NCBI GenBank assembly: GCA_963702435.1
Contig: CAVPCR010000006.1
Location: 127,135 to 191,134, forward strand
Reading direction: 5' to 3'
DNA length: 64,000 nucleotides
DNA from: Candidatus Eiseniibacteriota bacterium
Lineage (GTDB): Bacteria; Eisenbacteria; RBG-16-71-46; CAVPCR01
Shown: one piece after another, positions 2,437-47,236 of the stretch
How the letters are laid out: each line of letters starts with the position of its first letter
Numbering within the stretch: the stretch's first letter is position 1
Program-made: the position numbers and the translations under genes
The notes under the pieces: generated by a model
Databases searched by the model: none
What the model was told of the DNA's origin: nothing
What the model saw: only the letters and a program-made list of their open reading frames with translations

Positions 2437-3869
2437 GGGCGCGCCGTGCGACCGCCCAGCGTCATGGCGGGAGCGGCGAGGAGCACCCACAGCATGACCA
2501 CTTCCTGGTCCCAGATGTACGTCTGGAAGAGCCCGGCCACGAGGAAAGCCGACGCCGCGGCGAGGGCGATCAGGAGGAGGTCGTGGCGCGCGGCAGCCGC
2601 GAGCGACCGGCCGGCGCCGGAGTCGACGCCGCTCGCTGCCGCGTTCCGGAGCCCGCGGGTCGCGGCGACGAAGGTGCCGGCGACGATGACGATGTAGCCG
2701 GCGAGCGCGAGCGGACCGCCATCGAGGAGGGCGCGCATCGGATCCGAGTGCGCGTGCACCGTGGAGAGGTAGCGACCCGGCACCCGGTAGATCGGGAAGA
2801 GCTCGCTGAAGCGACCGGGAGCGATGCCGAGCGGGTGATCGGCGAGCATGCGGAGCGATGTCTTGAAGAGGAGGAGCCGCGGCGGCGGTTCGCTCATGGC
2901 GAACGTCTCGCCGAGACGGGCGCGCACGGAGTTGTCGGCGACGAGGATGCCGACAACGGCGAGCAGCCCGATCGCCACGAGCACGAGCGGCCGCCGCCCG
3001 CGGCGGGCGAGGACGAGAACGAGGAGGCCGACGAGGACGCCCGCCCACGAGCTTCGCGCGTAGCACCAGAGGAGGCCGAGCCCGAGCGGCGGCAGGAGGA
3101 GGAGCGGCAACCCGCGCCAGCGCTCGCCCCCGGCGGCGAGGCCGGCGGCTGCGAGCAACGCGAGCATGGCCGATCCGCCGTAGGACAGGTGATGCGAGAA
3201 GCACCCAGTGGCCATGAACCCGGTGCCGCGCGCCTCGAGCACCCGATCGCGCAGGAGATCGACCCCGCTCCAGTGCTGCCAAACGGCGTAGACACCCACG
3301 ATCGCGGCGACCACGGCCGCCACCGCGATCGCCCGGCGATAGAGCACCGGATCGCGCCGCGCCACGAGGGCGAGGACCGGCAGCGCGAGGAGCACGCCGT
3401 GCTTGCGGAGCGGATCGTCGAGGTGCTCCGGCACCCTGTTCACGAGGCAGGCGAGCCACTCGCCTGCGAAGAGCAGGAGGAGACCGAGGAGGAGAACGCG
3501 CGGCCAGCTCCCGCGTGCACCGGAACGGACGAGGACGAGGAGCCAGAGCAGCATGGAGAGCGCCAGGAGCGTCTGGCCGGCGGCGAGCGAGACCGGAACG
3601 AGCGCCGCGAAGGTGAGGAACGCGAGCTCCGCCGTCCGGATCGCGAGCGCGCCGCGCCCGGCCGCCGGCGCCTCCCGCGCGATCGGAGCGGGCTCCGCGC
3701 TCGCGCCGGGATCGGGCTTCAGGAGTCCGGTGACCACGGAACGCTGCCCGGCCGGCGCACGGGCGCTCACCGGCGGCCGCTCGGCGGGCGGCGGCCCGGC
3801 AGGCGACCGCTCGGGGGGCGGGCTTGCGGCGGGCGGCGGCTCGCGATCGGCGCCGCCGGATCCGCTCAA
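2433..3869 (-). CDS. O-antigen ligase / polymerase family (Wzy_C-like) polytopic membrane protein with a Pro-rich N-terminus
   Basis: Many hydrophobic spans, and motifs YARSSWAGVLVGLLV and HAHSDPMRALLDGG typical of O-antigen ligase-like proteins. The TTG start at 3869 overlaps the rnc stop; the true start may be internal. Confidence 0.7.
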   Translation of the reverse strand: MSGSGGADREPPPAASPPPERSPAGPPPAERPPVSARAPAGQRSVVTGLLKPDPGASAEPAPIAREAPAAGRGALAIRTAELAFLTFAALVPVSLAAGQTLLALSMLLWLLVLVRSGARGSWPRVLLLGLLLLFAGEWLACLVNRVPEHLDDPLRKHGVLLALPVLALVARRDPVLYRRAIAVAAVVAAIVGVYAVWQHWSGVDLLRDRVLEARGTGFMATGCFSHHLSYGGSAMLALLAAAGLAAGGERWRGLPLLLLPPLGLGLLWCYARSSWAGVLVGLLVLVLARRGRRPLVLVAIGLLAVVGILVADNSVRARLGETFAMSEPPPRLLLFKTSLRMLADHPLGIAPGRFSELFPIYRVPGRYLSTVHAHSDPMRALLDGGPLALAGYIVIVAGTFVAATRGLRNAAASGVDSGAGRSLAAAARHDLLLIALAAASAFLVAGLFQTYIWDQEVVMLWVLLAAPAMTLGGRTARP

Positions 3870-4990: not shown

Positions 4991-6232
4991 TCAACCCGCG
5001 TAACGCCTGACCACGAGGGCGACGTTGTGGCCCCCGAAGCCGAGCGAATTGGACATCACCACGTCGACCCGGGTCCGGCGCGCCGCGTTCGGCACGCAAT
5101 CCAGGTCGCAATCCGGATCGGGCACCTCGTAGTTGGTGGTCGGCGGCACGATGTTGTCGCGAATCGCCAGCACCGCGATGTTGAACTCGATCCCCCCGGC
5201 CGCTCCCAGCAGGTGGCCGGTCATCGACTTGGTGGAGCCGAACGCAACCTTGTACGCATGCTCGCCGAAAACGGTCTTCACGGCCATCGTCTCGTACTTG
5301 TCGTTCATCGGCGTAGACGTGCCGTGGGCATTGATGTAATCGACCGCCGCCGGAGCGATGCCGGCATCCCCGAGCGCGATCCTCATGGCGCGGGCCGCGC
5401 CCTCGCCACCCGGTGCCGGCGCGGTCACGTGGTGCGCGTCTCCGGTCGCCCCGTAGCCGACCACCTCGGCGAGGATCGGTGCGCCGCGCGCCCGCGCGTG
5501 GTCGAGGCTCTCGAGGACGGCCACTCCCGATCCCTCGCCCATGACGAAACCGTCGCGCCCGAGATCGAACGGACGCGAGGCCCGCTCCGGGGCATCGTTG
5601 CGCGTCGACATCGCCTTCATGGCGCAGAACCCGCCGATCGCGAGCGGCGTGATGGTGGCCTCCGCACCGCCGGTGACGACCAGGTCCGCCTCTCCCTTGG
5701 CGATGATGCGAAATGCCTCGCCGATCGCATGCGCACCGGAGGCGCAGGCGGAGACCGCCGCGAAGTTGGGACCGCGGTAGCCGAGGCGGATCGAGATCTG
5801 CCCGGCCGCCATGTCGGCGATCATCATCGGGATGAAGAACGGACTGATGCGCGAGGGCCCTTTCTCGACCAGCGCCGCGTGCTGGGTCTCGAGGGTCTCG
5901 ATGCCGCCGATGCCGGAGCCGATGATGACCCCGGCCCGGTCGAGATCGACGCCGTTCTCGCCGTCGAGCCCGGCCGCCGCCACCGCTTCGAGCGCCGCGG
6001 CGATGCCGTACTGCACGAAGAGGTCCGTCCGGCGGATCTCCTTCTTGTCAAGGTAATCCTCCGGCTTGAACCCCTTCACCTCACCGGCGATCCGCGTGTC
6101 GAAGCCACTCGCGTCGAAGCGAGTGATGAGGCCGATCCCGCTCTGGCCCTTGACGATTGCGTCCCAGAACTCGGGAATCGAGTTCCCGAGGGGGCTCACC
6201 GTACCCAGCCCTGTGACCACCACCCGATTCAT
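4991..6232 (-). CDS. fabF: 3-oxoacyl-ACP synthase II
   Basis: [17 protein letters not shown]...[13 protein letters not shown]...NAHGTSTP...[12 protein letters not shown]...[10 protein letters not shown], full length 413 aa. Confidence 0.96.
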
Positions 6233-30423: not shown

Positions 30424-33334
30424 CTAGCGCGGAATCGTGAACACCTGCGCTGCGGGCGACAGCCCGTCGGCGCGGACGGCCTCCATGACGCGGTTCGCTT
30501 CCTCGGAAGTCGGATACGGACCGAGCAGAACCCGGCGCCATGTCCCCTTCTCCGCTACATCCACGCTGACGATCACGCCCTCGAACCCGAGCGCCCGGTA
30601 GCGGGAGAGATCCTCCTCCGCCTTGGCCCGGGTTCGGAACGAGCTCACGTGCACGCCATACGGTCCGGCTCCCGGCGCGGCCGCGGCGGCGCCGGTGGTG
30701 CGCTCCCGGTCCGGCGGGGCGACACCGGCCGTCGGGGCCGGAGGCGACGCCGCGGGCTCCGTGGCCGGAGCGGGTGCGGCGACTTGCGGGGTGGTGCCCG
30801 GCGGCGGGGTGGTACCCGGCGGCGGGGTGGTGCCCGGCGGCGGGGTGGTGCGCACGGCCGGCTCGGGGGGACTCGACGGAGCCGGCGCCATGGCCGCGGG
30901 CGCGCTCGCCGCGGGGCTGCCGGTACCGCCATCGTCGCCGCCGGGCGCGGGGATCGCCGCCGTCTGCGTGCGGCGCGGTTCACCCGGCGCCGGCGTCTCG
31001 ACCGCGGCGGTCCGCGGCGGCCGCGGTCCGAAGCGAATGACCTCGCTCTTGTACGCCCAGAACATCACGAGGCAGATCCCGAACAGCCCGCCGATCACCA
31101 GCACGCGCCACGGCCTCTGCCGCGGCTCCGGGCGCGCCGGGGCGGGCGGGGGCTCGAGCTCGTGCTCGAGCTCCGCGATGGCATCCGGAACTTCGCGCTC
31201 GTCGGCGGTCGCGCTCGCCGGCGCCAGCAGATCGGCAAAGAGCGAGCGCTCCGGAATCGGCCCGGCGCCCTGCGCCGATTCCTGCGTCTCACCGTGATAA
31301 TCGGCGGCAGCCGCGGCCGTCTCCGGGAGCGGGGGCACCTCACCGGGGAACGCCGGCGCGACCTCCGCGGGGGCGGGCGGCGGCGCGCCGAACGCGCCCT
31401 CGTCCCAGGTCGGCAGCGCAGGCTCGACGGCCGATGGGATCCCCGGCGCGGACTCGAACGCGATCGGCATCTCGAACTCGGGTTCGACGGCAGCGGGCAT
31501 CTCGGGCTCGGCCGCCGCCGGCGCCTCGGCCCATGGCTCGAACGCGGTCGGCATCTCGAACTCGGGTTCGACGGCAGCGGGCGTCTCGGGCTCGGCCGCC
31601 GCCGGCGTCTCGGCCCATGGCTCGAACGCGGTCGGCATCTCGAACTCGGGTCACGGCTGCGGGCGTCTCGGGCTCGGCCGCCGCCGGCGTCTCGGCCCAT
31701 GGCTCAAACGCGGTCGGCATCTCGAACTCCGGCTCGAGGCGCGGGCATCCGGGCTCGGCCGCCGCCGGCGCCTCGGCCCATGGCTCGAACGCGGTCGGCT
31801 TCTCGAACTCCGGCTCGGGCGCCGGCTCGAGCTCGGGCGCAGGTTCGGCCGCCGCCGGCGCCTCGGCCCATGGCTCGAACGCGGTCGGCTTCTCGAACTC
31901 CGGCTCGGGCGCCGGCTCGAGCTCGGGCGCGGGCTCGAACGCCACCGGCGCCGGCTCGAATCCGGCAGGCATCTCCTCGACCGGCCACCCATCCGCCGCC
32001 GGCCGGGCCGGGGCTTGCGCCTCGCTCTCCGCGTCCTGCGGCGCCATCGCAGCCGGTTCCTCGGCGGTCGGAACGGCCGGCCCCGCCGGTCCGTCGGTGT
32101 CGCCGCGACCCGGTACGCCGCGCGTGAGGCGATCCCACGCCGCCTCGAACGACTGCGCGAACTCGTCGGCGGCGGGCCCGGCGCCCGTCGCCCCCGCCTC
32201 TCCTTCACCCCCCGCCGCACCGGGCATGACCCCTGCAGCGAGGTCATCCGGCTCCCCGGCGAGCGGACGCAGCAGGCGCGGCGGTGCGGGAATCTCCGGC
32301 GGCTCAGGCAGCTTCGGCCTCGTCTCGCTCAGGAACGGCGACACGCCGATCGGCGGCGCCCCGGTCCCCCGCAACCGAGCCACCTCGGCCGCCCACAGGG
32401 ACGCAGCGGACTCGTCCACCTCCGTCGTCTCGCGGATCACCACCTCGGCGCCGTCGTCCAGATCGAATCCGGGCACGCTCTCGGCGGCGCCCGCGTCCCA
32501 GAATCGCTGCGCCCCGGCCGTCTCGGCTGCGGCCGCGGTCCCGGGCTCCCGCTCCGCCGCCGGCTCGGGTGCCGCGGCGGGCGGCTGCACCATGCGGTCG
32601 GCGGTGAGCGGCCCCGCGGTGACGAGGCCGAGGATCGGCGCGTCCATGTCCCAGAGCGTGAGATAGCTCCGCCGGATGGCGTCCCGGCCGATGGCATCGA
32701 GACCGTAGGCGATGAGGATCGAGTCGAGGCGGCGCGCGAGCATGCTCAGGATCGGCCCGGGCAGACCCGTCGTCGACGTCACCAGCGTGAGATCGGAGTT
32801 CCTGCGCAGGGCGCCCAGCACGCGCTCCCACTCATCGCCGTGGATGGGCTCGCCCGACCACGGATGCGAACCGGCCGTGATCATGTTCACGCCGAGGAGC
32901 CCGCTGTCGCGGGCCACCGCTGCGTAGGAGCAGCCGTAGAGGAGCATGTCGATCAGTCCCTCGCGGCGGGTAGGATCGCCGGCGAAGGCGGGAGCGCGGA
33001 GCTCGGCCTCGACGATGGTCACCTGGCGGCCGGTCCGGGCGAGCCGGGCGGCGAGATTCGCCGCGAGCTTGAAGCGCACCGGATCCTGATCGAGGCCGAG
33101 GCAACCGAGGAGCTTGAGCGGCATGTGCTCGCAGAGGAGCTCGACGCGACCGACGATCGCCTCGTACGACGCACCGGGATCCACGAGATCGGTCACGCCG
33201 AAGGGGGGAACGACATCGGGCTCGACGCGCGCGAGCGTGCCGAGCAGCGAGACGTTCAGATCGCCCGCCACCTGGGCCGGCGATTCGTAGAACTCAGGCT
33301 CACCACGTCCCGCGGCGGGAAGGGGAGATTGCAT
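30424..33334 (-). pseudogene. Large bitopic protein interrupted by a 2-nt lesion inside the repeats: degenerate ParA/BY-kinase-like N-domain + Pro/Ala/Glu tandem repeats + TM + SPOR domain
   Basis: N-terminal frame (33334-~31655): ...KLAANLAARLARTGRQVTIVEAELRAPAF..GLIDMLLYG, with no Walker A lysine. C-terminal frame (31638-30424): repeats, the TM RPWRVLVIGGLFGICLVMFWAY, then SPOR (YGVHVSSFRTRAKAEEDLSRYRALGFEG...WRRVLLGPY). Span is 2911 nt = 3n+1. Confidence 0.75.
31455..31950. repeat. Coding tandem repeat, period ~81-87 nt, 5-6 copies (EFE(M/K)PTAFEPWAE(A/T)PAAAEPE.PAAVEP)
   Basis: The core GGCCCATGGCTCGAACGCGGTCGGC(A/T)TCTCGAACTC recurs near 31528, 31612, 31695, 31776 and 31863. Confidence 0.85.
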
Positions 33335-33474: not shown

Positions 33475-34899
33475 TCAAGATCGGTCCACCCGGGGACGAC
33501 CTTGGGCGCGGGCGACGAAGGCGCCCACGACTCGCTCGCCGTCCCCCGGCAGGAGCGTGCGCAGATCGAGGAGCAGCTGTCCCTCCTCGATACGTCCGAG
33601 GACGGGAGGCTCCCCTCGCCTGAGCTCCGCCTCGAGGGTCGCGACCGTCCCGGCGCCCGCCCGCGGGCGGAGCGCCACCCCGGCCGAGGGGATCCCTACC
33701 ATGGGGAGCGCCCCGCCGCCGACCCGGCTCGTCATCGCGGCCACGCGCACCTCGACATCCGGCGCCGCGCGCGCGATCTCCGCCGCCAGCGCCGCTGCCT
33801 CCGCCTCGATCCCGGCCACCGGCCGGGCCAGGAAGCGGAGGGTCGGGATCTCGGCCCACGCCTCCGCCGGCTCGAGGTAGGCCCGGAGCGTGGCCTCGAG
33901 CGCCGCGAGCGAGAGCTTATCCAGCCGGAGCGCTCGCGCGAGCGGATCGCTCGCCAGGCGGCGGATCAGGGTGGCCTCGCCGACGAGGACGCCGGCCTGC
34001 GGCCCGCCGAGCAGCTTGTCCCCCGAGAACATGACGACCGCGGCGCCGGCGGCCAGGCTCGTCGCCGCGGTCGGCTCGCGCCCGATGCGATCGCCGAGGT
34101 CGAGGAGCGCGCCGCTCCCGAGATCCTCCGCCACCGGGACCCCGTGGGCGCGGCCGAGGGCGGCGAGCGCCGGCAACTCCACCTCGGCCACGAATCCGTC
34201 CATCACGAAGTTCGAGCGGTGGACCTTCAGGATGAGCGCCGTCTCCGGTCCGATCGCCCGGGCGTAATCCGCGAGATGGGTCTTGTTCGTCGTTCCCACC
34301 TCGCGAAGCCTGGCCCCGGACCGCGCCATGATGTCGGGCAGCCGGAAGGAACCGCCGATCTCGACCAGCTCCCCGCGGGACACGATGACCTCGCGCCCGT
34401 GCGCGAGCCCGCTCAGGGTCAGGAGCACCGCCGCCGCGTTGTTGTTGACGACGAGCGCGTCCTCCGCCCCGGTGAGCTCGACCAGGAGCTCGCGCACCGC
34501 GGCCTGACGCGATCCGCGCTCGCCGCGCTCGAGGTCGAACTCGAGCGTCGAGTACTGGGCCGCCGCTGCCGCCACCGCCCGCTGTGCCGCGGTCGAGAGG
34601 ACCGATCGCCCGAGGTTCGTGTGCACGACGATGCCGGTGGCGTTCACGACCGGACGGAGGCCGGGCCGCGCGAGCGCGAGGGCCGCCAGAGCGACGCGGG
34701 CCGCCAGCACGTCCACGGCGGCCGGATCGGTCGTTGCCGACTCCTCCCCCGCCGGGGCCGCGGCCAGCGTCTCGCGGGCGGCGGCCAGCACGGTGCGGGC
34801 CGCTCGCCGCTTGAGCACGCGCGGCGCGTCCATCGTGACGAGGAGAGGATGATTCAGCAGGGCCTCGACGGCCGGCAGCTCACGACGCCGGTCCGGCAT
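33475..34899 (-). CDS. selA: L-seryl-tRNA(Sec) selenium transferase
   Basis: MPDRRRELPAVEALLNHP...RPVVNATGIVVHTNLGRS...ALVVNNNAAAVLL...VIVSRGELVEIGGSFR...KVHRSNF...FSGDKLLGGPQAG. ATG at 34899. Confidence 0.9.
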   Translation of the reverse strand: MPDRRRELPAVEALLNHPLLVTMDAPRVLKRRAARTVLAAARETLAAAPAGEESATTDPAAVDVLAARVALAALALARPGLRPVVNATGIVVHTNLGRSVLSTAAQRAVAAAAAQYSTLEFDLERGERGSRQAAVRELLVELTGAEDALVVNNNAAAVLLTLSGLAHGREVIVSRGELVEIGGSFRLPDIMARSGARLREVGTTNKTHLADYARAIGPETALILKVHRSNFVMDGFVAEVELPALAALGRAHGVPVAEDLGSGALLDLGDRIGREPTAATSLAAGAAVVMFSGDKLLGGPQAGVLVGEATLIRRLASDPLARALRLDKLSLAALEATLRAYLEPAEAWAEIPTLRFLARPVAGIEAEAAALAAEIARAAPDVEVRVAAMTSRVGGGALPMVGIPSAGVALRPRAGAGTVATLEAELRRGEPPVLGRIEEGQLLLDLRTLLPGDGERVVGAFVARAQGRPRVDRS

Positions 34900-35057
34900 G
34901 CAGTACGCTCGCTCGCTCGAGCCCGCGGTCGCGGTCGGTTGCGCGGGTCGCGTGGTCGGAGGTTCGCCCCGGCGCACGAGGCGCCGCCTCCCGCCGGCAA
35001 CGCATCACCCGGGACAGGTGGGGCTCGAAGGCGCTCCGGAGACGGGCCGGGACGCGA

Positions 35058-35880
35058 TCACCCGCCGAGATAGGCGTTCCTGACCTCCTCGTTGCGCAGG
35101 AGGTTCTCCCGGGTATCGGACAGGACGATGCTCCCTGTCTCCATCACGTAGCCGCGATCGGCGATGCCGAGGGCCATGTGCGCATTCTGCTCGACGAGCA
35201 GGATGGTCACGCCCTGGCGGCTGATCTCGGCGACGGTGCGGAATATCTCACGGACGAGGATCGGTGCCAACCCCAAAGACGGTTCATCCATGAGCAGGAG
35301 GCGCGGCCGCGACATGAGTCCGCGCGCGATGGCGAGCATCTGCTGCTCGCCGCCGGAGAGCGTCCCTCCCCGCTGCCGCTCGCGCTCCTTGAGGCGCGGG
35401 AAGAGCGCGAACATGCGCTCGAGATCGGCGCGGATCCGGGCGCGATCCCGCCGCAGGTAGGCACCGAGCTCGAGATTGTCGCGCACGCTCAGGTTGGCGA
35501 AGATGATCCGGCCTTCCGGGACCTGCGAGATGCCGCTCGCGACGATGCGATGGGCGGCGAGGCGGGTGATGTCCCGCCCCGCGAAGGTGATCCGGCCGTG
35601 ACGCGGCGGGAGCAGCCCCGAGATGGTGCGGAGGAGCGTCGTCTTGCCGGCGCCGTTGGCCCCGATCAGGGTCACCACCTCGCCCGCGCGGACCGCAAGG
35701 GACACCCCGCGCAGCGCCCGGACCGCGCCGTAGCAGACATCGAGATCTTCGACCGCGAGGAGCGGCTCGCCGGCGGCGGACGCGGCGGACGCGGCGGGCG
35801 CGAGCGGACGCGGCGGGCCGGGCGGGGGCTGCCGGGCCTGCCCGGACCGCGCTCGCCGGATCCTGCGGCGTCCGCGTCAT
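35058..35880 (-). pseudogene. livF: Branched-chain amino acid ABC transporter ATP-binding protein LivF. The ATGA-coupled start is out of frame with the ABC domain (1-nt insertion inferred in a GC repeat).
   Basis: The ABC frame reads ...EPLLAVEDLDVCYGAVRALRGVSLAVRAGEVVTLIGANGAGKTT...LSGGEQQMLAI...LLLMDEPS, with no start before the GTG at 35705. The ATG at 35880 overlaps the livG stop. Span is 823 nt = 3n+1. Confidence 0.85.
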
Positions 35881-36649
35881 GGACCGGCCACCTCTTCCCC
35901 GAGGTACGCCTCGATCACCTTCGGATGGCGGCGTATCTCCTCGGGCCGGCCGCTCGCGATCTGGCGCCCGTAGTCGAGGACCGCGATCCGCTCGCAGATC
36001 CCCATGACGACGCGCATGTCGTGCTCGATCAGGAGCACGGTCATCTCGTAGCGGTCGCGGATCCACCGGATCAGATCCATGAGCTCCTCGGTCTCGGGCG
36101 GGTTCAGCCCTGCCGCCGGCTCGTCGAGGAGGAGGAGACGCGGGCCGGTGGCGAGGGCCCGGGCGATCTCGAGACGCCGCTGCTGGCCGTAGGGCAGCTC
36201 GCCGGCCAGCCGCCCGGCCACCGGCTCGAGCCGGAAGTCGCGGAGGAGCTGGCGCGCGCGTTCCTCGATCGCCGCCTCGGCCCGCCCGGAGGCGGCCGAA
36301 TGGAGCATCGAGGCAAGCAGGCTCGGCTTGTGCCTGGGGTGGAAGGCCGTGCGCACGTTGTCGAGGACGGTCATGGCCTTGAACAGGCGGAGTTCTGGAA
36401 GGTGCGCGCCACCCCTGCTCCCGCGATGCGGAAGGCCGGCTGGCCGCAGAGGAGGCGCTCGCCGAGGCGGATCTCGCCCTCGCTCGGCGCGTACACGCCG
36501 GTGATCAGGTTGAAGACCGTGGTCTTCCCCGCGCCGTTCGGCCCGATCAGGCCGACGAGCTCCCCCTTGTCGATCACGAGGTCGAGCGAGTCGACCGCCT
36601 TCAGGCCTCCGAAGTAGTGGGTCACCCGATCGAGCACGAGGAGGGCCAT
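35877..36649 (-). pseudogene. livG: Branched-chain amino acid ABC transporter ATP-binding protein LivG, split by a 1-nt deletion
   Basis: Piece 1: MALLVLDRVTHYFGGLKAV...GPNGAGKTTVFN...GVARTFQN. Piece 2: (LRLFKA)MTVLDNV...YGQQRRLEIARAL...LLLDEPAAGL. Observed CAGAACTCCGCCTG where CAGAACCTCCGCCTG is expected. Span is 773 nt = 3n+2. Confidence 0.9.
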
Positions 36650-36653
36650 GGCG

Positions 36654-37671
36654 CTATCGGGTCCCCCCGGGCGCGGCGCCCCGGCCGGCTCCGAAGCGCG
36701 CCCCCAGGCGCGCCCCGAGCGCGCGCAGGTCGAGCTCGCGCGTGCCGAGGAGGCCCTGCGGCCGCGCGATCATGAGCACGATCAGCAGCAAGGAGTAGAG
36801 GACCATCCGGTAGTCCTTGACCGGACGCAGGACCTCCGGCAGCAGGGTCAGGACGATGGCCGCGAGCACCGATCCGGTGATCGAGCCCATGCCGCCGAGC
36901 ACGACCATGATCACGATCTCGATCGACTTGATGAAGCTGAAGCTGTTCGTGTGCAGGTAGCCCAGGTAGTGGGCGAAGAGCCCGCCGGCGATGCCGGCGA
37001 AGGAGGCGCCGACCACGAAGGCCAGCACCTTGTAGCGCGTGGTGTCGATGCCGAGGGCCTCGGCGGCGATCTCGTCCTCGCGCACCGCGAGAAGGCGCGG
37101 CCGTGCGTCGAGTGGACCAGGTTCCAGACGACCGCGATCGTGACCGCGGTCCACAGGAAGACCCAGGCAGACTCGACCAGGCGGGGATGTCCGTGAAGCC
37201 GCGGGCGCCGCCCACCGCCTCGATGTTCAGGATGATGACCCGGATGATCTCGCCGAACCCGAGGGTGGCGATGGCGAGGTAGTCGCCGCGCAGCCGAAGG
37301 CTCGGCAATCCCACCAGGAGTCCGGCGAGCGCGGCGACACCGCCGCCGAGGAGCAGCGCCGCGAGGAAGAGGAGGGCCTCGCCCAGACCGGCGGGGACGC
37401 CCCGGACGGCGAGGACCGCCACCCAGTTCCGGGCCAGGTAGTAGGTGAAAGCCGCTGACAGGTAGCCGCCCACCGCCATGAAGCCGGCGTGTCCGAGCGA
37501 GAACTGCCCCGTGAAGCCGTTGATCAGGTTGAGCGACACGGCGAGGATGATGCTGATCCCGCAGAGCGTGATGATCTGGAGCAGGTAGGGATTGACGACC
37601 GCCGGCAGGATGCGACCGGCAGCGAAGATCGCGGCAACGAGGACCGCCAGGCCGAGGAGACGCGTCCCCAT
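36654..37671 (-). pseudogene. livM: Branched-chain amino acid ABC transporter permease LivM, split over three frames by two 1-nt deletions
   Basis: Piece 1: MGTRLLG...GQFSLGHAGFMAVGGY...GARGFTDIP. Piece 2 (~37178-37092): LVESAWVFLWTAVTIAVVWNLVHSTHGRAF. Piece 3: LAVREDEIAAEALGIDTTRYKVLAFVV...GGMGSITGSV. Span is 1018 nt = 3n+1. Confidence 0.88.
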
Positions 37672-42640: not shown

Positions 42641-43270
42641 ATGTCGAACCGAACGGCCCAACGTCCGTCCGATCGCGCGACCCCACGGCGGCGCTCGGTC
42701 CGCGAGGCGCTCTTCATCGCTCTTCTCGGCACCGGGCTCGCCCTGGTCGCCAACGCCCTCTCCCCGCGCGGCATCCCGCTCGTCGGGGACTTCTCGCGGG
42801 GCGCGGCGCTCGCCAACCGGAGCACCGAGGAACTGGCGACGCTGCCGGCGGAGATCGATCTCGCTCACGTCAAGGACATCGTGGCCGCCAGCGCGCGCCG
42901 GGAGGCGCCCGCCGCCCCCGACAGCGCGCCGACGAGTCCCGCCCGCGCCGACACCTCGCTCGCCGCGGCGCTGGCCGCGGGCGCGGTGCTCCTCGACGCC
43001 CGGACCGCCGATGTCTACGCCGCGGGGCACATCCCCGGCGCGCTCAACCTGCCCACGGCCGAGTTCGATCGGGCCTATCCCGGGCTCAAGGCCCGGATCG
43101 CCGCGGCCTCGCTCCTCGTCGTCTATTGCGACGGCGGCGACTGCGAGCTATCGCACGATCTGGCGGGCATGCTCAAGGACCTGGGGCACGGCCCCATCCA
43201 GCTCTTCCCCGGCGGCTTCGATGCGTGGATGGAGGCCGGGTACGACATGCACGAGGGCACGGAACCATGA
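42641..43270 (+). CDS. Membrane-anchored rhodanese-domain protein
   Basis: SD GGAG before the ATG. One TM (LFIALLGTGLALVANAL). Rhodanese core LLDARTADVYAAGHIPGALNLP...LLVVYCDGGDCELSHDLA. Confidence 0.8.
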   Translation: MSNRTAQRPSDRATPRRRSVREALFIALLGTGLALVANALSPRGIPLVGDFSRGAALANRSTEELATLPAEIDLAHVKDIVAASARREAPAAPDSAPTSPARADTSLAAALAAGAVLLDARTADVYAAGHIPGALNLPTAEFDRAYPGLKARIAAASLLVVYCDGGDCELSHDLAGMLKDLGHGPIQLFPGGFDAWMEAGYDMHEGTEP

Positions 43271-43737
43271 GCGTGCGCCGGATTCTCTATCACCTCGTGC
43301 GCTTCGCGGTGGGCGCGGTGTTTCTCTACGCCAGCGTGCACAAGGTGATCGCCCCGGCGGAGTTCTCCCGCACCGTGTACCACTACCAGCTCCTGCCCGC
43401 GGCGGCCGTCAACCTGGTCGCGATCGTGCTGCCGTGGATCGAGGGGCTGGTCGGCCTCTGCCTCGTCCTCGGCGTCAAGATGCGCGGGGCCGCCGCCATC
43501 GCCGCGGTCTCGCTCCTCGTCTTCCTCGTCGCCATGGGCACGGCGCTCGCTCGCGGCCTCAACATCGACTGCGGCTGCTTCGCGGCGTCGGGCACCAGGC
43601 TCGGCTTCGATCGCATCATCGGCGACCTCGTCCTCCTGGCCGCGGCCGCCTTCCTCTACCAGGAGTCGGCGCGCGGATCCGTATCCATCCCCGCGCTCCG
43701 CGGCCTTCAACCCTCGAGCGTCAAGGAGTCGTCATGA
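43267..43737 (+). CDS. MauE/DoxX-family integral membrane protein (DCGCF motif)
   Basis: The ATG overlaps the rhodanese stop (ATGA). There are four hydrophobic helices, with ...ARGLNIDCGCFAASG... typical of MauE-like proteins. Confidence 0.75.
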   Translation: MSVRRILYHLVRFAVGAVFLYASVHKVIAPAEFSRTVYHYQLLPAAAVNLVAIVLPWIEGLVGLCLVLGVKMRGAAAIAAVSLLVFLVAMGTALARGLNIDCGCFAASGTRLGFDRIIGDLVLLAAAAFLYQESARGSVSIPALRGLQPSSVKESS

Positions 43738-45095
43738 CCCGTCGTCTCGCCTTCCTCGCGGTCCTCGTCTCAGCCATCCTGGCCAGCTTCCTCGCGGCGG
43801 GACCGCCGGCGCGGAGCGCGGCGGACCCGGAGATCTTCGTCCTCGCCACGGCCTCGAACCGCGGCGAGGTCGATCCCTGCGGCTGAAAGTCGGCCCGCAA
43901 GGGAGGGCTGGCCCGGAGGGCTGCCCTGATCGACTCGCTGCGTGGACTCCACGCGAACATGCTCGTCGTCGACGCCGGTGGGATGACCCATCCCAACAAG
44001 CAGCAGAATCCGCGCTACAACGACTTCGTGGTCGAGGCCATGAACGCGATGCGCTACGACGCGGTCACCATGGGCCACCTCGAGCTGGACCGCGGGATCG
44101 ACTTCGTGCGCGAGTACGTGCCGAAGTTCCAGTGCCCGGTCGTGGTCTCGAACGTGCGCGTGACGAGCGGCAACGCGCCGTGGAAGGAGAGCGCGGTCAT
44201 CCAGGTCGGCGGGCGCCGGGTGGGCATCCTCGGGCTCGTGAGCGGCGACTACGGGCAGGGCCCCGATGCGCTCTTCCAGGCCGGCTTCACCTTCGAGGAG
44301 CCGCTGGCGGCGGCCCAGCGCCTCCTGCCCGAGCTCGAGAAGCAGTGCGACGTGGTGGTCGCCCTCGCCCACCTCGAGACCAAGGAACTCGACCGCGTCG
44401 TGCGCCATGGGCGCGGGATCGACCTCGTGGTCGCCGGGTACAACCCGAGCCCGGTCAACGCGCAGCCCGACAGTGCGGCGACCACTCTCCTCCGCCCCGG
44501 GCAGCGCGGGGAGCACGTGGGTATCGCGAGCGTGACGCCGGGAAGCCAGGGGGCCGCCGCCACGGTCTCCGGTGTCGAGACCGTGATGCTCGAGATGGCC
44601 AAGTTCCCTGATGACGAGCCGCTCGCCGCGCGCCTCGCCGTGGTCAAGAAGGAGATCGAGTCGGAGACCCGCAAGGCGCAGCTCGAGCAGGAGCTCAAGG
44701 CCCAGGAGGGGCTGATCCTCGGCCAGGACCGCTACCTGGGGGGCGAGGCCTGCGCGCGCTGCCACGCGGGAGAGACCGGGTGGTGGAACGGCGATCCGCA
44801 TGCGCGCGCCTTCGCCACGCTCGAGGCCAAGGGGAAGCAGGCGGATGCTGCCTGCCTCAAGTGTCACGTCACCGGCGACGGCATGCCGGGCGGCTTCGGC
44901 GGCATCGGGACGACGGCCAACATGAAGAACGTGCAGTGCGAGTCCTGCCACGGCATGGGCACCCAGCACGACTGGACCGGGGCGACAGCTGTCCGGCCGG
45001 GCGAGACCAACTGCCGTACGTGCCACACCGCCGAGTGGAGCCCCGATTTCGACTACGGGACCTATCTCGGCCGTCTCGGGCACGGCAAGAAGTAA
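43734..45095 (+). CDS. Candidate selenoprotein: signal peptide + degenerate 5'-nucleotidase/metallophosphoesterase-like domain with PCG-U(TGA 43884-43886) + C-terminal tetrahaem cytochrome c
   Basis: The ATG overlaps the MauE stop (ATGA). The frame is open across a single TGA to 45095. Signal peptide MTRRLAFLAVLVSAILASFLAAGPPARSAA. Four CxxCH sites (CARCH, CLKCH, CESCH, CRTCH). 5'-NT-like blocks GGLARRAALIDSLR, VVDAGGM, MGHLELD and ALAHLE. Confidence 0.6.
43904..43927 (+). promoter_or_regulatory. SECIS-like hairpin downstream of the in-frame UGA
   Basis: AGGGC-U-GGCCC GGA GGGCU GCCCU forms 5 + 5 bp with a bulged U and a G-containing 3-nt apical loop. The stem starts 18 nt after the UGA. Confidence 0.4.
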
Positions 45096-45140
45096 CGGTC
45101 AGGCGCTGAAATCCGCGGCGCGCGCACCGCTGCGGGCGCA

Positions 45141-45200
45141 GCGCCGGGGGGCGCAGCGGAGCGCCGGGGGGCGCAGCGGAGCGCCGGGGGGCGCAGCGAC
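45141..45200. repeat. Three tandem 20-nt units GCGCCGGGGGGCGCAGCGGA, each able to form a GCGCC/GGCGC hairpin, between convergent genes
   Basis: Exact copies at 45141, 45161 and 45181 (the last ends ..GAC). They lie between the cytochrome stop (45095) and the stop of the minus-strand gene (45213). Confidence 0.85.
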
Positions 45201-45212
45201 GCCCCGGGCAGG

Positions 45213-46715
45213 TCAGAAGCCCCCGGCGGGAACCGGAGTCACCCCGGCGTGCGAGAGTCGGAAGACCGGCACCGCACCGCCGGCCTCCGGCGGAGCGAGG
45301 AGCATGGTCCGCGGGATCGCGGCGGCGGCGAGCGCCGCGGCCACGTCCTCCGGCGCCTCCGGCTCGGCGGCGAGCGCGCCTGCCGCGAGGCGCGCCGCGA
45401 TGTAGCCGCGGGCGGCAACCTGGTCGGGCTCGCTCCCGAACCGGCGCCGGTAGCGCGCGGCGAAGGTCTCGCCGCCCAGGACCGGCGGCTCGTAGTAGTT
45501 CTCCGCGAAGTACGCCTCGTCGAGGTACTCGAGCGCGACCGTCGCCACGTCCCTGCCGGCCAGTTCCTCGAGGCCCAGGAGCCGCGCTCCGACCTCGTAG
45601 TACGCGAACTGCGGGATGGCGGTCATGAGCTCGCGCGGCGTTCCGGGCAGGAAGATCCCATCCGGGGCCAGCACCTTGAGTCGCTCGAGCGCCGGCCCGA
45701 AGTCGACCTCGCCTCCACGGTACACCTCCCGGCCCACGACCGCGGTTCCCGCGGCGGTCGCCGCGCGCGCGAAGCGCTCGCCGAGATCCCGTCCCCCCTC
45801 CGTGTCCGGAGCCAGGATCGCGAGCCTGCTCAGGCCGAGCTCGCGGGCGGCGCGGGCCAGCGCCTCCGCCTGATACGCGCGCGGTGCCGTGGTGCGAAAC
45901 ACCTGTGATCCGATCGCCGACAGGTCCTCGCGGCCCGGAGCCGGCGTGATGAGCGGGATCCCCGCCCCGCCGGCAGCGGCCGCCGCCGGCACGGTGGTGG
46001 CAGGCAGGACATCGCCGACCACGACCCCGACGCCGGCACGGGCGAGCTCCACGCCGGCGCGCGCCGCGGCGAGCGGTTCGCCACGGGTGTCGGCGGCCAG
46101 GAGCGTCAGCGGAAAACGCGCCGCGCGGTTGTGCTCCTCGACCGCGAGGGCCGCCGCCTGCACGAACGCTTCGCCCTGGCGCGCTAGACGCCCGTTGAGC
46201 GGGGCGAGCACTCCGATCGTGAACAGGCGGAGCGCCCGGGGCGGCGGCAGACCGAGCCCGACCTGCGCAGCGGCCGCCGAGTCCGCACCGAGGGCCCGCG
46301 CCGCGGCGACGAGCAGGCTCGCTGCCGCGTTGCGCTCGGCGTGCGCGTGACGGGCGAGCGCGAGGAGCGCCCGGGCCGTCGCGGCGCCGCGGCGCGTGGC
46401 CTCATCACCGAGGTAGAGGTACTCGGTCGTGGTGAGACTCTGCGGCCGGAGCCGGGCGATGATCTCCGCGCCGCGTGCCGCGGTGGCGCCGTCCCCTGCC
46501 AGGTAGAGCGCCCACTCCGCGCCACGGAAGGAGTAGCCCGCCGCGAGGAGCTCCTCCGCATGGCGGGCGGCGGCGCCGGCCCAGGCCGAGTCGTGGCGCG
46601 CGCTCGTGGCGGCCGGGGGCGGACCGGAGCGCGGATCCGCCGCGGCGAACGGCGGGCGGACGGCGATCGCGACGGCGCCGAGGCCGGCGAGGAGGACCCG
46701 GACTCGCGCGCTCAC
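45213..46715 (-). CDS. Periplasmic binding protein, type 1 (LivK/Peripla_BP_6-like) with an N-terminal helical region (LpoA-like architecture is possible)
   Basis: The GTG at 46715 overlaps the upstream stop (GTGA). Signal peptide SARVRVLLAGLGAVAIAV. FTIGVLAPLNGRLARQGEAFVQAAALAVEE...IPLITPAP...LAILAPDTEGG. Confidence 0.7.
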   Translation of the reverse strand: MSARVRVLLAGLGAVAIAVRPPFAAADPRSGPPPAATSARHDSAWAGAAARHAEELLAAGYSFRGAEWALYLAGDGATAARGAEIIARLRPQSLTTTEYLYLGDEATRRGAATARALLALARHAHAERNAAASLLVAAARALGADSAAAAQVGLGLPPPRALRLFTIGVLAPLNGRLARQGEAFVQAAALAVEEHNRAARFPLTLLAADTRGEPLAAARAGVELARAGVGVVVGDVLPATTVPAAAAAGGAGIPLITPAPGREDLSAIGSQVFRTTAPRAYQAEALARAARELGLSRLAILAPDTEGGRDLGERFARAATAAGTAVVGREVYRGGEVDFGPALERLKVLAPDGIFLPGTPRELMTAIPQFAYYEVGARLLGLEELAGRDVATVALEYLDEAYFAENYYEPPVLGGETFAARYRRRFGSEPDQVAARGYIAARLAAGALAAEPEAPEDVAAALAAAAIPRTMLLAPPEAGGAVPVFRLSHAGVTPVPAGGF

Positions 46716-47236
46716 GAACCGGGCTCCGCCAGGGCGCGATGGGCTGCGGCGAGCTCGACGTAGTGATCGGCCGAGCGCAGGAAACCCTCCTCGACGCTCG
46801 CGTCGAGGGTGCGCACGACCTTGGCCGGGATGCCGGCCACGAGCGAGCGCGGCGGAATGCGCCGGCCCTCGAGGACCACGGCGCCGGCCGCGACGATCGA
46901 TCCCGAACCGATCACGGCGCCGTTCAGGAGGATCGCCCCCATGCCGATCAGGCAGCGATCCTCGATCGTGCAGCCGTGGAGGATGACGCGATGGCCGACG
47001 GTGACCTCGTCGCCGACCAGGGTCGGCCACTCGCCGGAATCCACGTGCACGACGCAACCGTCCTGGATGTTGGTGCGGCGGCCGATCCGGATCCAGTTGA
47101 TGTCGCCCCGCACCGTCGTGTGGTACCAGATGCTGGCGTCGTCACCGAGCGTGACATCGCCGATCACGACCGCCCCGGGGGCGACAAAGGATGCGCGCAC
47201 CACGTCGGGGATCTTGTCGCCGTACGGAAGGATCAT
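46712..47236 (-). CDS. Gamma-carbonic-anhydrase-like hexapeptide-repeat protein (YrdA/PaaY type)
   Basis: MILPYGDKIPDV...FVAPGAVVIGDVTLGDDASIWYHTTVRGDINWIRIGRRTNIQDGCVVH...LHGCTIED. Confidence 0.88.
   Translation of the reverse strand: MILPYGDKIPDVVRASFVAPGAVVIGDVTLGDDASIWYHTTVRGDINWIRIGRRTNIQDGCVVHVDSGEWPTLVGDEVTVGHRVILHGCTIEDRCLIGMGAILLNGAVIGSGSIVAAGAVVLEGRRIPPRSLVAGIPAKVVRTLDASVEEGFLRSADHYVELAAAHRALAEPGS

Follow-up and report, generated by a model that had tools for sequence, protein, structure and literature searches.

The open reading frame at positions 43734-45095 (forward strand) of a 64,000-nucleotide stretch of Candidatus Eiseniibacteriota bacterium DNA (NCBI GenBank assembly GCA_963702435.1, contig CAVPCR010000006.1, positions 127,135 to 191,134), hereafter called the window, very probably codes for a protein of the "UshA-like (seleno)protein" family, PCGU, or of a close sister clade, with the in-frame UGA at 43884-43886 read as selenocysteine (Sec). 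This judgement covers the family placement and the selenocysteine together and is based on sequence comparison. The selenoprotein family has already been catalogued since at least 2008, and the window gene is a slightly divergent addition to it, not a new family. It was listed as "COG0737 UshA-like, CxU" in a study in which the GOS metagenome yielded 76 Sec sequences of it (Zhang & Gladyshev, 2008; PMC2398784), and an UshA-like CxU selenoprotein family is also listed in two later reviews (PMC9312934; PMC13188914, citing the NCBIfam model NF041198). No function for the UshA-like PCGU family was stated in the literature searched. The family is very widespread: the GTDB representative genomes contain at least 477 relatives, and Sec forms predominate among them. 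Recognition of the Sec codon restores a secreted protein of 453 residues from an annotation that was split into products of 50 and 378 amino acids.

Reading frame, homologues and family

The complete coding sequence (43734-45095, +) was translated into 453 codons and a terminal TAA, with exactly one internal stop, the TGA at 43884-43886, which corresponds to residue 51 in the context ...NRGEVDPCG-UGA-KSARKGGLARRAALIDSLR... and forms the end of a P48-C49-G50-U51 motif (43875-43886). The first-pass annotation of this DNA had joined two listed ORFs across the UGA, one ending at 43886 and one at 43959-45095, and these do share a single frame with no other stop between them. The ATG at 43734 overlaps the stop codon of the MauE-like gene before it (ATGA, 43734-43737) and is found 5 nt downstream of a canonical Shine-Dalgarno sequence, AAGGAG (43723-43728), which was read from the sequence; direct reading revealed no Shine-Dalgarno-like site before the ATG at 43959. 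Residues 1-30 (MTRRLAFLAVLVSAILASFLAAGPPARSAA, 43734-43823) resemble a Sec-type (export) signal peptide, with RR, a hydrophobic core and ARSAA/DPE, and were judged by eye to be a probable one; a hydrophobic leader is also found at the N-terminus of full-length Cys homologues. It had further been claimed that only the upstream ORF has a start and a signal peptide and that only the downstream one has the four CxxCH motifs, and both claims held, as AAGGAG and leader occur only at ATG 43734 and all four motifs lie at residues 340-431, after the UGA. The GC content at third codon positions (GC3) in this frame is 0.90-0.97 from about 43800 onward, the UGA region included. The 24 codons from the UGA to Met 43959 are conserved in orthologues at the protein level and are part of a KGGLARR..DS.R block which is invariant in the family.

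Searches yielded 87 homologues, of which 25 full-length sequences were aligned. In 21 of these 25 the UGA column is Cys (PCGC). Most of the remaining homologues, at 355-383 residues, match only about 77-84 % of the query, as is typical of genes that automatic callers have restarted after a TGA. Two orthologues, L001 with 66 % identity (on a contig of 2.3 Mb) and L002 with 55 %, keep the TGA in the context EVDPCG-TGA-KS(A/N)RKGGLARR, and their genes are split in public gene calls in the same way as that of the window: 43734-43886 and 43959-45095 in the window, 5752-5904 and 6001-7113 in L001, and 5743-5904 and 6001-7143 in L002. The products are an ORF of 50-53 amino acids and a leaderless 'cytochrome' of 370-380 amino acids (378 in the database entry for the window, P0001), and most database entries for the clade of the window are truncated because of such splitting.

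The at least 477 relatives were found by scanning one genome per GTDB species with a 19-sequence alignment as query, and the codon at the UGA column was counted by motif search in the best 80 of these loci together with L001, L002 and the window. TGA was found 52 times and TGC or TGT seven times; besides the window, TGA is present at this column in 50 loci (51 copies, one locus having two). The phyla in this set include Eisenbacteria, Krumholzibacteriota, Acidobacteriota, Rokubacteria, Latescibacterota and Thermodesulfobacteriota. The first-pass annotation had proposed asking whether homologues have Cys or TGA at this column, and both were found: opposite the UGA, homologues have Cys and orthologues have UGA, which constitutes a Sec/Cys pair. 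Residues C49, G50, C/U51, K56, G57, G58, R61, D67, S68 and R70 are invariant in the family alignment.

NF041198, "UshA-like (seleno)protein" (model UshA_like_PCGU), is the top NCBIfam match of the window protein (251.6 bits, E 1.4e-74; curated cutoff 275) and outscores every other NCBIfam match by more than 200 bits. The N-terminal half alone scores 133 bits (profile positions 9-266) and the haem-containing half alone 120 bits (profile positions 362-518), and since both halves match separately, the curated family already has the two-domain architecture. The P-C-G-U/C motif of NF041198 is present as P48-C49-G50-UGA51, and the column is invariant C-G-C in alignment A2. The window protein has the same layout as the NF041198 proteins, i.e. 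a signal peptide, a degenerate 5'-nucleotidase N-domain with P-C-G-U/C, a linker and a cytochrome c554-like tetrahaem domain, with the Sec at the same position and the putative Sec insertion element over the same GGLARR codons. It differs in being about 65 residues shorter and in scoring, like the other members of its clade tested (the full-length Cys form P0008 and the haem-less paralogue P0028), below the cutoff; in addition, GG replaces GD at motif II in the window clade, and this clade has its gene in a rhodanese-MauE/DoxX operon which was not seen in other members.

Tandem paralogues are frequent in the family (L002, 7215-8180; L004, 3046 and 4499; L023, 1901 and 3076; L085, 5001-6368 and 6448-7467), typically as one tetrahaem copy and one shorter haem-less copy in mixed Sec/Cys states. 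In L085, the copy after the haem-bearing Cys form P0022 is a Sec form without haems, with the sequence EIEPCG*HK. Such pairs hint that in some lineages two subunits may act together. The window contains only one copy of the UshA-like gene.

SECIS-like hairpin and decoding of the UGA

A hairpin resembling a bacterial selenocysteine insertion sequence (SECIS) element, AGGGCU-GGCCC-GGA-GGGCU-GCCCU, is found at 43904-43927 (+), where it overlaps the G-G-L-A-R-R-A codons. With regard to the four criteria for bacterial SECIS elements (bSECIS) taken from PMC13188914, it has a 3-nt apical loop starting with GG (GGA, 43915-43917), a stem of 5 + 5 bp with one bulged U, a spacing of 28 nt between the UGA and the loop, and a folding energy of −15.9 kcal/mol when folded alone. 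A check of the region after the UGA for such an element had been suggested in the first-pass annotation, and the hairpin found there covaries and is the best match to a covariance model of the family.

In an ungapped comparison of 46 distinct Sec-form sequences, the 9-bp stem was paired in 84.5 % of cells, compared with 30-50 % when the pairing partner was slid, with 38 double changes, and none of 500 shuffles reached the observed pairing. Both members of pair 12-24 are synonymous third positions (Leu CUN and Ala GCN), and the pair occurs as GC (20), CG (11), UG (5), GU (2) and AU (1). The codons AGG, GCU and GGA of the hairpin are rare in the genes of the window, constituting 2.3, 2.0 and 7.8 % of their synonymous codons, respectively. 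Between the window and L001, identity is 100 % over the 56 nt at 43884-43939 and about 70-80 % on either side. Of the seven Cys forms, L065 keeps this conserved hairpin, and the other six use different codons for GGLARR (GCG CGC ...) that do not form it.

The covariance model was made from 40 other members, excluding the sequence of the window, and both strands of the window (128 kb) were searched. The best match, at 43899-43934, had 35.4 bits (E 1.5e-9) and the next 18.1 bits. This second match (3634-3669, −; E 0.002) was judged most likely to be a GC-rich hairpin hit by chance, as it falls within the gene of a Wzy_C (O-antigen ligase-like) protein and no TGA is found in frame close to it. 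A search of the whole window with Rfam at gathering thresholds gave tRNA-Gln only, and a permissive Rfam scan of 43700-44100 gave chance matches only, no curated family covering the hairpin. In L065, the Cys form (TGC) around 3109 still has the SECIS-like hairpin GGGCUGGCCCGCAGGGCCGGC, and this locus may represent a recent replacement of Sec by Cys.

The window also contains selA, predicted to encode L-seryl-tRNA(Sec) selenium transferase (33475-34977, −; Pfam SelA E 2.7e-143), which had been noticed earlier as lying 9 kb away and which is located 8.8 kb from the putative selenoprotein gene. Its score is at equivalog level (TIGR00474, 543 bits, cutoff 267.9), and its presence is evidence, at the sequence level, that the organism would decode UGA as Sec. 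Of the 26 genes called with confidence in the window, 13 end with TGA as an ordinary stop, among them the MauE gene that overlaps the ATG at 43734, and TGA is the commonest stop; therefore UGA is not reassigned genome-wide. The ORF directly downstream of selA (31340-33334, −) was considered as selB and rejected, as it has no GTPase domain. This ORF has roughly 560 codons with a strong GC3 coding signal, no Pfam match and marginal NCBIfam matches (polysaccharide tyrosine autokinase, E 0.001).

Three other explanations of the TGA were considered. If it were a sequencing or assembly miscall of TGC or TGT, the protein would be an ordinary Cys-form UshA-like cytochrome, and both the existence of Cys forms in the family and signs of indels elsewhere in the contig (frame switches and a half-length BPD_transp_2 match around 37200) are in favour of this. 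Independent assemblies, those of L001 and L002, nevertheless have the same TGA, as do about 50 other genomes, the 56 nt from the TGA onward are identical to L001, and the window retains, in rare codons, an intact copy of the hairpin that is missing from six of the seven Cys forms, so that a miscall is extremely improbable. A genuine stop would leave either a pseudogene or a secreted peptide of 50 residues together with a cytoplasmic protein of 378 residues starting at Met 43959, which is how automatic public gene calls present the gene in the window and in L001. Such an arrangement is very improbable, given that haem attachment to a c-type cytochrome requires export and the leader is confined to the upstream piece, that the stretch from the TGA to Met 43959 is conserved as part of the invariant block, that no ribosome-binding site precedes Met 43959, and that Cys homologues are continuous.

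UGA reassignment occurs in some bacterial lineages, and with this precedent, and with selB, selC and selD not seen in the 64-kb window, suppression or a variant genetic code might place one of the standard amino acids (Trp, Gly or Cys) at the UGA. The use of TGA as a regular stop, the equivalog-level selA, the covarying SECIS-like hairpin at the canonical distance and the Cys aligned with the UGA, hallmark of a Sec/Cys pair, argue against this and make it highly unlikely. Combined, the evidence leaves little room for a miscall, a pseudogene or read-through with an amino acid other than Sec. Those checks from the first-pass annotation that were carried out all turned out in support of its reading.

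Several observations weigh against the reading as an UshA-like selenoprotein. The score of 251.6 bits is below the NF041198 cutoff for the whole protein, and strict equivalog membership fails because the match leaves a gap of about 95 positions in the centre of the profile (about 267-361); scores of 220-257 bits were likewise obtained for P0022, P0037 and P0040, from two other clades, and for P0008 from the window clade, and the more distant homologue P0074 passes at 279 bits. The stability of the hairpin is not exceptional compared with shuffled sequences (z −1.3), and since such a value is uninformative in sequence of 72 % GC, the support for the hairpin comes from comparison with relatives and not from thermodynamics. 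The conserved GGLARR peptide accounts for part of the RNA-model score. Furthermore, selB, selC and selD were not found within the 64-kb window, in which tRNA-Sec was sought with ARAGORN and Rfam and about 50 further ORFs were scanned for selB and selD, and for every member of the family the insertion of selenium is deduced from sequence.

Domain structure

The only Pfam domain matched by the window protein is Cytochrome_C554 (PF13435; residues 339-407, 57.3 bits, gathering threshold 20.8), and this occupies the region of the Pfam domain 5_nucleotid_C, for which no match was obtained. When the family profile was compared with PDB, it matched the 5'-nucleotidase 2z1a of Thermus thermophilus (E 8.5e-34), the N-domains of CD73 and UshA, cytochrome c554 (1bvb, E 7.8e-16) and, weakly, SoxB. 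Structural evidence was taken from P0008, a full-length Cys orthologue with 54 % identity, whose AlphaFold model (mean pLDDT 87.3) shows an N-domain of the beta-sandwich type, a helix of 30 residues (306-336) and a haem domain that is helical. In a Foldseek search, about 320 columns of this model, comprising the N-domain and the linker helix, were aligned with CD73 and UshA (E about 1e-20), which places the tetrahaem module where 5'-nucleotidases have their mobile substrate-binding domain. On this basis the window gene would encode a 5'-nucleotidase-type (calcineurin-like) N-domain with degenerate metal ligands (43824-44618, +), a long inter-domain linker helix (approximate limits 44619-44738, +) and a haem domain with four haem c sites (+): CARCH (residues 340-344, 44751-44765), which is invariant in alignment A2, and CLKCH (374-378, 44853-44867), CESCH (402-406, 44937-44951) and CRTCH (427-431, 45012-45026), identified by reading of the motifs and in the same alignment.

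The metal ligands of the 5'-nucleotidases are altered, DxH to S41-N-R43, GD to G82-G83, GNHE to G114-H-L-E and GHxH to G235-Y-N-P. The His of motif IV (H213) is the sole ligand of the dimetal site that is left, and the ligand positions are not conserved across the family. The degeneration of GD and GNHE that had been suspected from the sequence is seen in the alignments, and extends to GHxH, and the proposal of a C-G-U motif on a degenerate 5'-nucleotidase scaffold, between a signal peptide and a tetrahaem C-terminus, is supported. One detail had to be corrected: the UGA had been placed at the DxHG motif itself, whereas DxH is aligned with S41-N42-R43 and the UGA (residue 51) follows 8 residues later, in the next loop, which borders the former metal site.

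The haem domain contains seven His residues, the four proximal ones and H356, H412 and H450, and no invariant Met or Lys. As only three spare His are available to the four haems, one of these is probably five-coordinate; in cytochrome c554, haem 2 is the one haem with this coordination.

In comparison with periplasmic 5'-nucleotidases (E. coli UshA, 1ush; T. thermophilus, 2z1a; human CD73), the window protein has the same calcineurin-like N-terminal fold and long inter-domain helix, and the GG[LV]ARR motif is common to both. It differs in lacking the dimetal ligand set and in having four haems in place of the nucleotide-binding C-domain, and for these reasons phosphoesterase activity is not expected; identity as a true 5'-nucleotidase was rejected on the scores and the lost metal ligands. 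The thiosulfohydrolase SoxB (TIGR04486; PDB 4uwq, 2wdc) also has a 5'-nucleotidase fold, is periplasmic and acts on cysteine-bound sulfur species, and the window locus has a sulfur-related neighbour, the rhodanese. The homology to SoxB is weak (46.4 bits; PDB profile E 1e-14), and SoxB keeps its di-manganese site and has neither haems nor Sec. With 46.4 bits against a TIGR04486 cutoff of 550 and the metal ligands lost, identity as SoxB was rejected.

Four CxxCH motifs are shared with the cytochrome c554 of Nitrosomonas europaea (PDB 1bvb/1ft5; PF13435), and the three extra His of the window protein are consistent with the five-coordinate haem of the latter, but in the window protein these motifs belong to the C-terminal module of a larger protein, and the score with the Nitrosomonas equivalog NF043010 is only 28 bits (cutoff 400). 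Other multihaem cytochromes with Sec are ExtKL (NF040886) and the octahaem tetrathionate-reductase family (TIGR04315) (PMC13188914). These are likewise periplasmic with multiple haems and one Sec, and occur in largely the same anaerobic phyla, but their catalytic domains and Sec contexts are unrelated to those of the window protein and the similarity of the haem motifs is weak.

Proposed function and gene neighbourhood

The proposed explanation is that 43734-45095 would be translated into one secreted polypeptide of 453 residues, the UGA at 43884-43886 being decoded as U51 with the hairpin at 43904-43927 acting as the bacterial SECIS element that directs Sec insertion through SelB. In the N-domain, which has lost most of its metal ligands, the invariant P-C-G-U/C loop would be situated just after the old motif I, and C49 and U51 may form a redox-active selenenylsulfide or a nucleophilic (selenolate) centre at the former active site. 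This centre would exchange electrons with periplasmic partners via the four haems. In the window clade the protein probably acts together with the co-transcribed MauE/DoxX protein (CGC) and the membrane-anchored rhodanese (C-x4-C), and the likely substrate would be an inorganic sulfur or selenium species. Our best guess is that the protein is a periplasmic haem-coupled selenol/thiol oxidoreductase. The redox mechanism of C49, U51 and the haems is put forward tentatively, as a possible but rather doubtful account.

The gene is the last of a three-gene block. The first gene (42641-43270, +) is predicted to encode a membrane-anchored protein with a rhodanese domain (Pfam Rhodanese, 3e-15), and the second (43267-43737, +) a membrane protein of the MauE/DoxX family (Pfam MauE, 1.2e-27; DoxX, 4.2e-6), translationally coupled (ATGA) to the putative selenoprotein gene. 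The CGCF motif of the MauE/DoxX protein (residues 102-105) is invariant in the window, L001, L002 and L006, and the YCDGGDCE loop of the rhodanese is conserved in L001 and L002. The trio of rhodanese, MauE and UshA-like genes is kept in L001, L002 and L006 only. At the three distant members examined the rhodanese and MauE neighbours are absent and the neighbours are unrelated, which counts against a mechanism that involves these partners in general; as the trio is limited to the closest clade, a clade-specific sulfur/selenium relay is suggested, not a family-wide partnership. Closely spaced pairs of Cys or Sec are present in all three genes of the block.

A more speculative and, in our estimation, unlikely idea is that the rhodanese, the MauE/DoxX protein and the UshA-like tetrahaem protein constitute an undescribed chalcogen (S or Se) redox relay, in which the selenol would be positioned over, or ligate, a five-coordinate haem at the place where the substrate domain docks in 5'-nucleotidases. 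The three spare His for four haems, the location of the haem domain on the same linker helix and the paired (seleno)cysteines of all three proteins are compatible with such a relay. If it existed, haem electron transfer would be directly coupled to Se-S chemistry. For a first biochemical study of the family, the dead phosphatase scaffold, the haem domain that replaces the mobile substrate domain, the probable five-coordinate haem and the clade-specific rhodanese/MauE operon provide handles.

Two minor features of the window were also recorded. In the branched-chain amino-acid ABC transporter block at 35058-37671 (−), there is a frame switch near 37200, and one ORF matches only half of BPD_transp_2; the first-pass annotation had described the errors elsewhere in the window as being of the indel type, and the frame switch is consistent with indels or frameshifts. 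Between the stop of the putative selenoprotein gene (45095) and the convergent Peripla_BP_6 gene (45213-47057, −), a 20-nt unit, GCGGAGCGCCGGGGGGCGCA, is repeated 3.2 times (45136-45198, 97 % match), which is possibly a GC-rich repeat or a terminator region.

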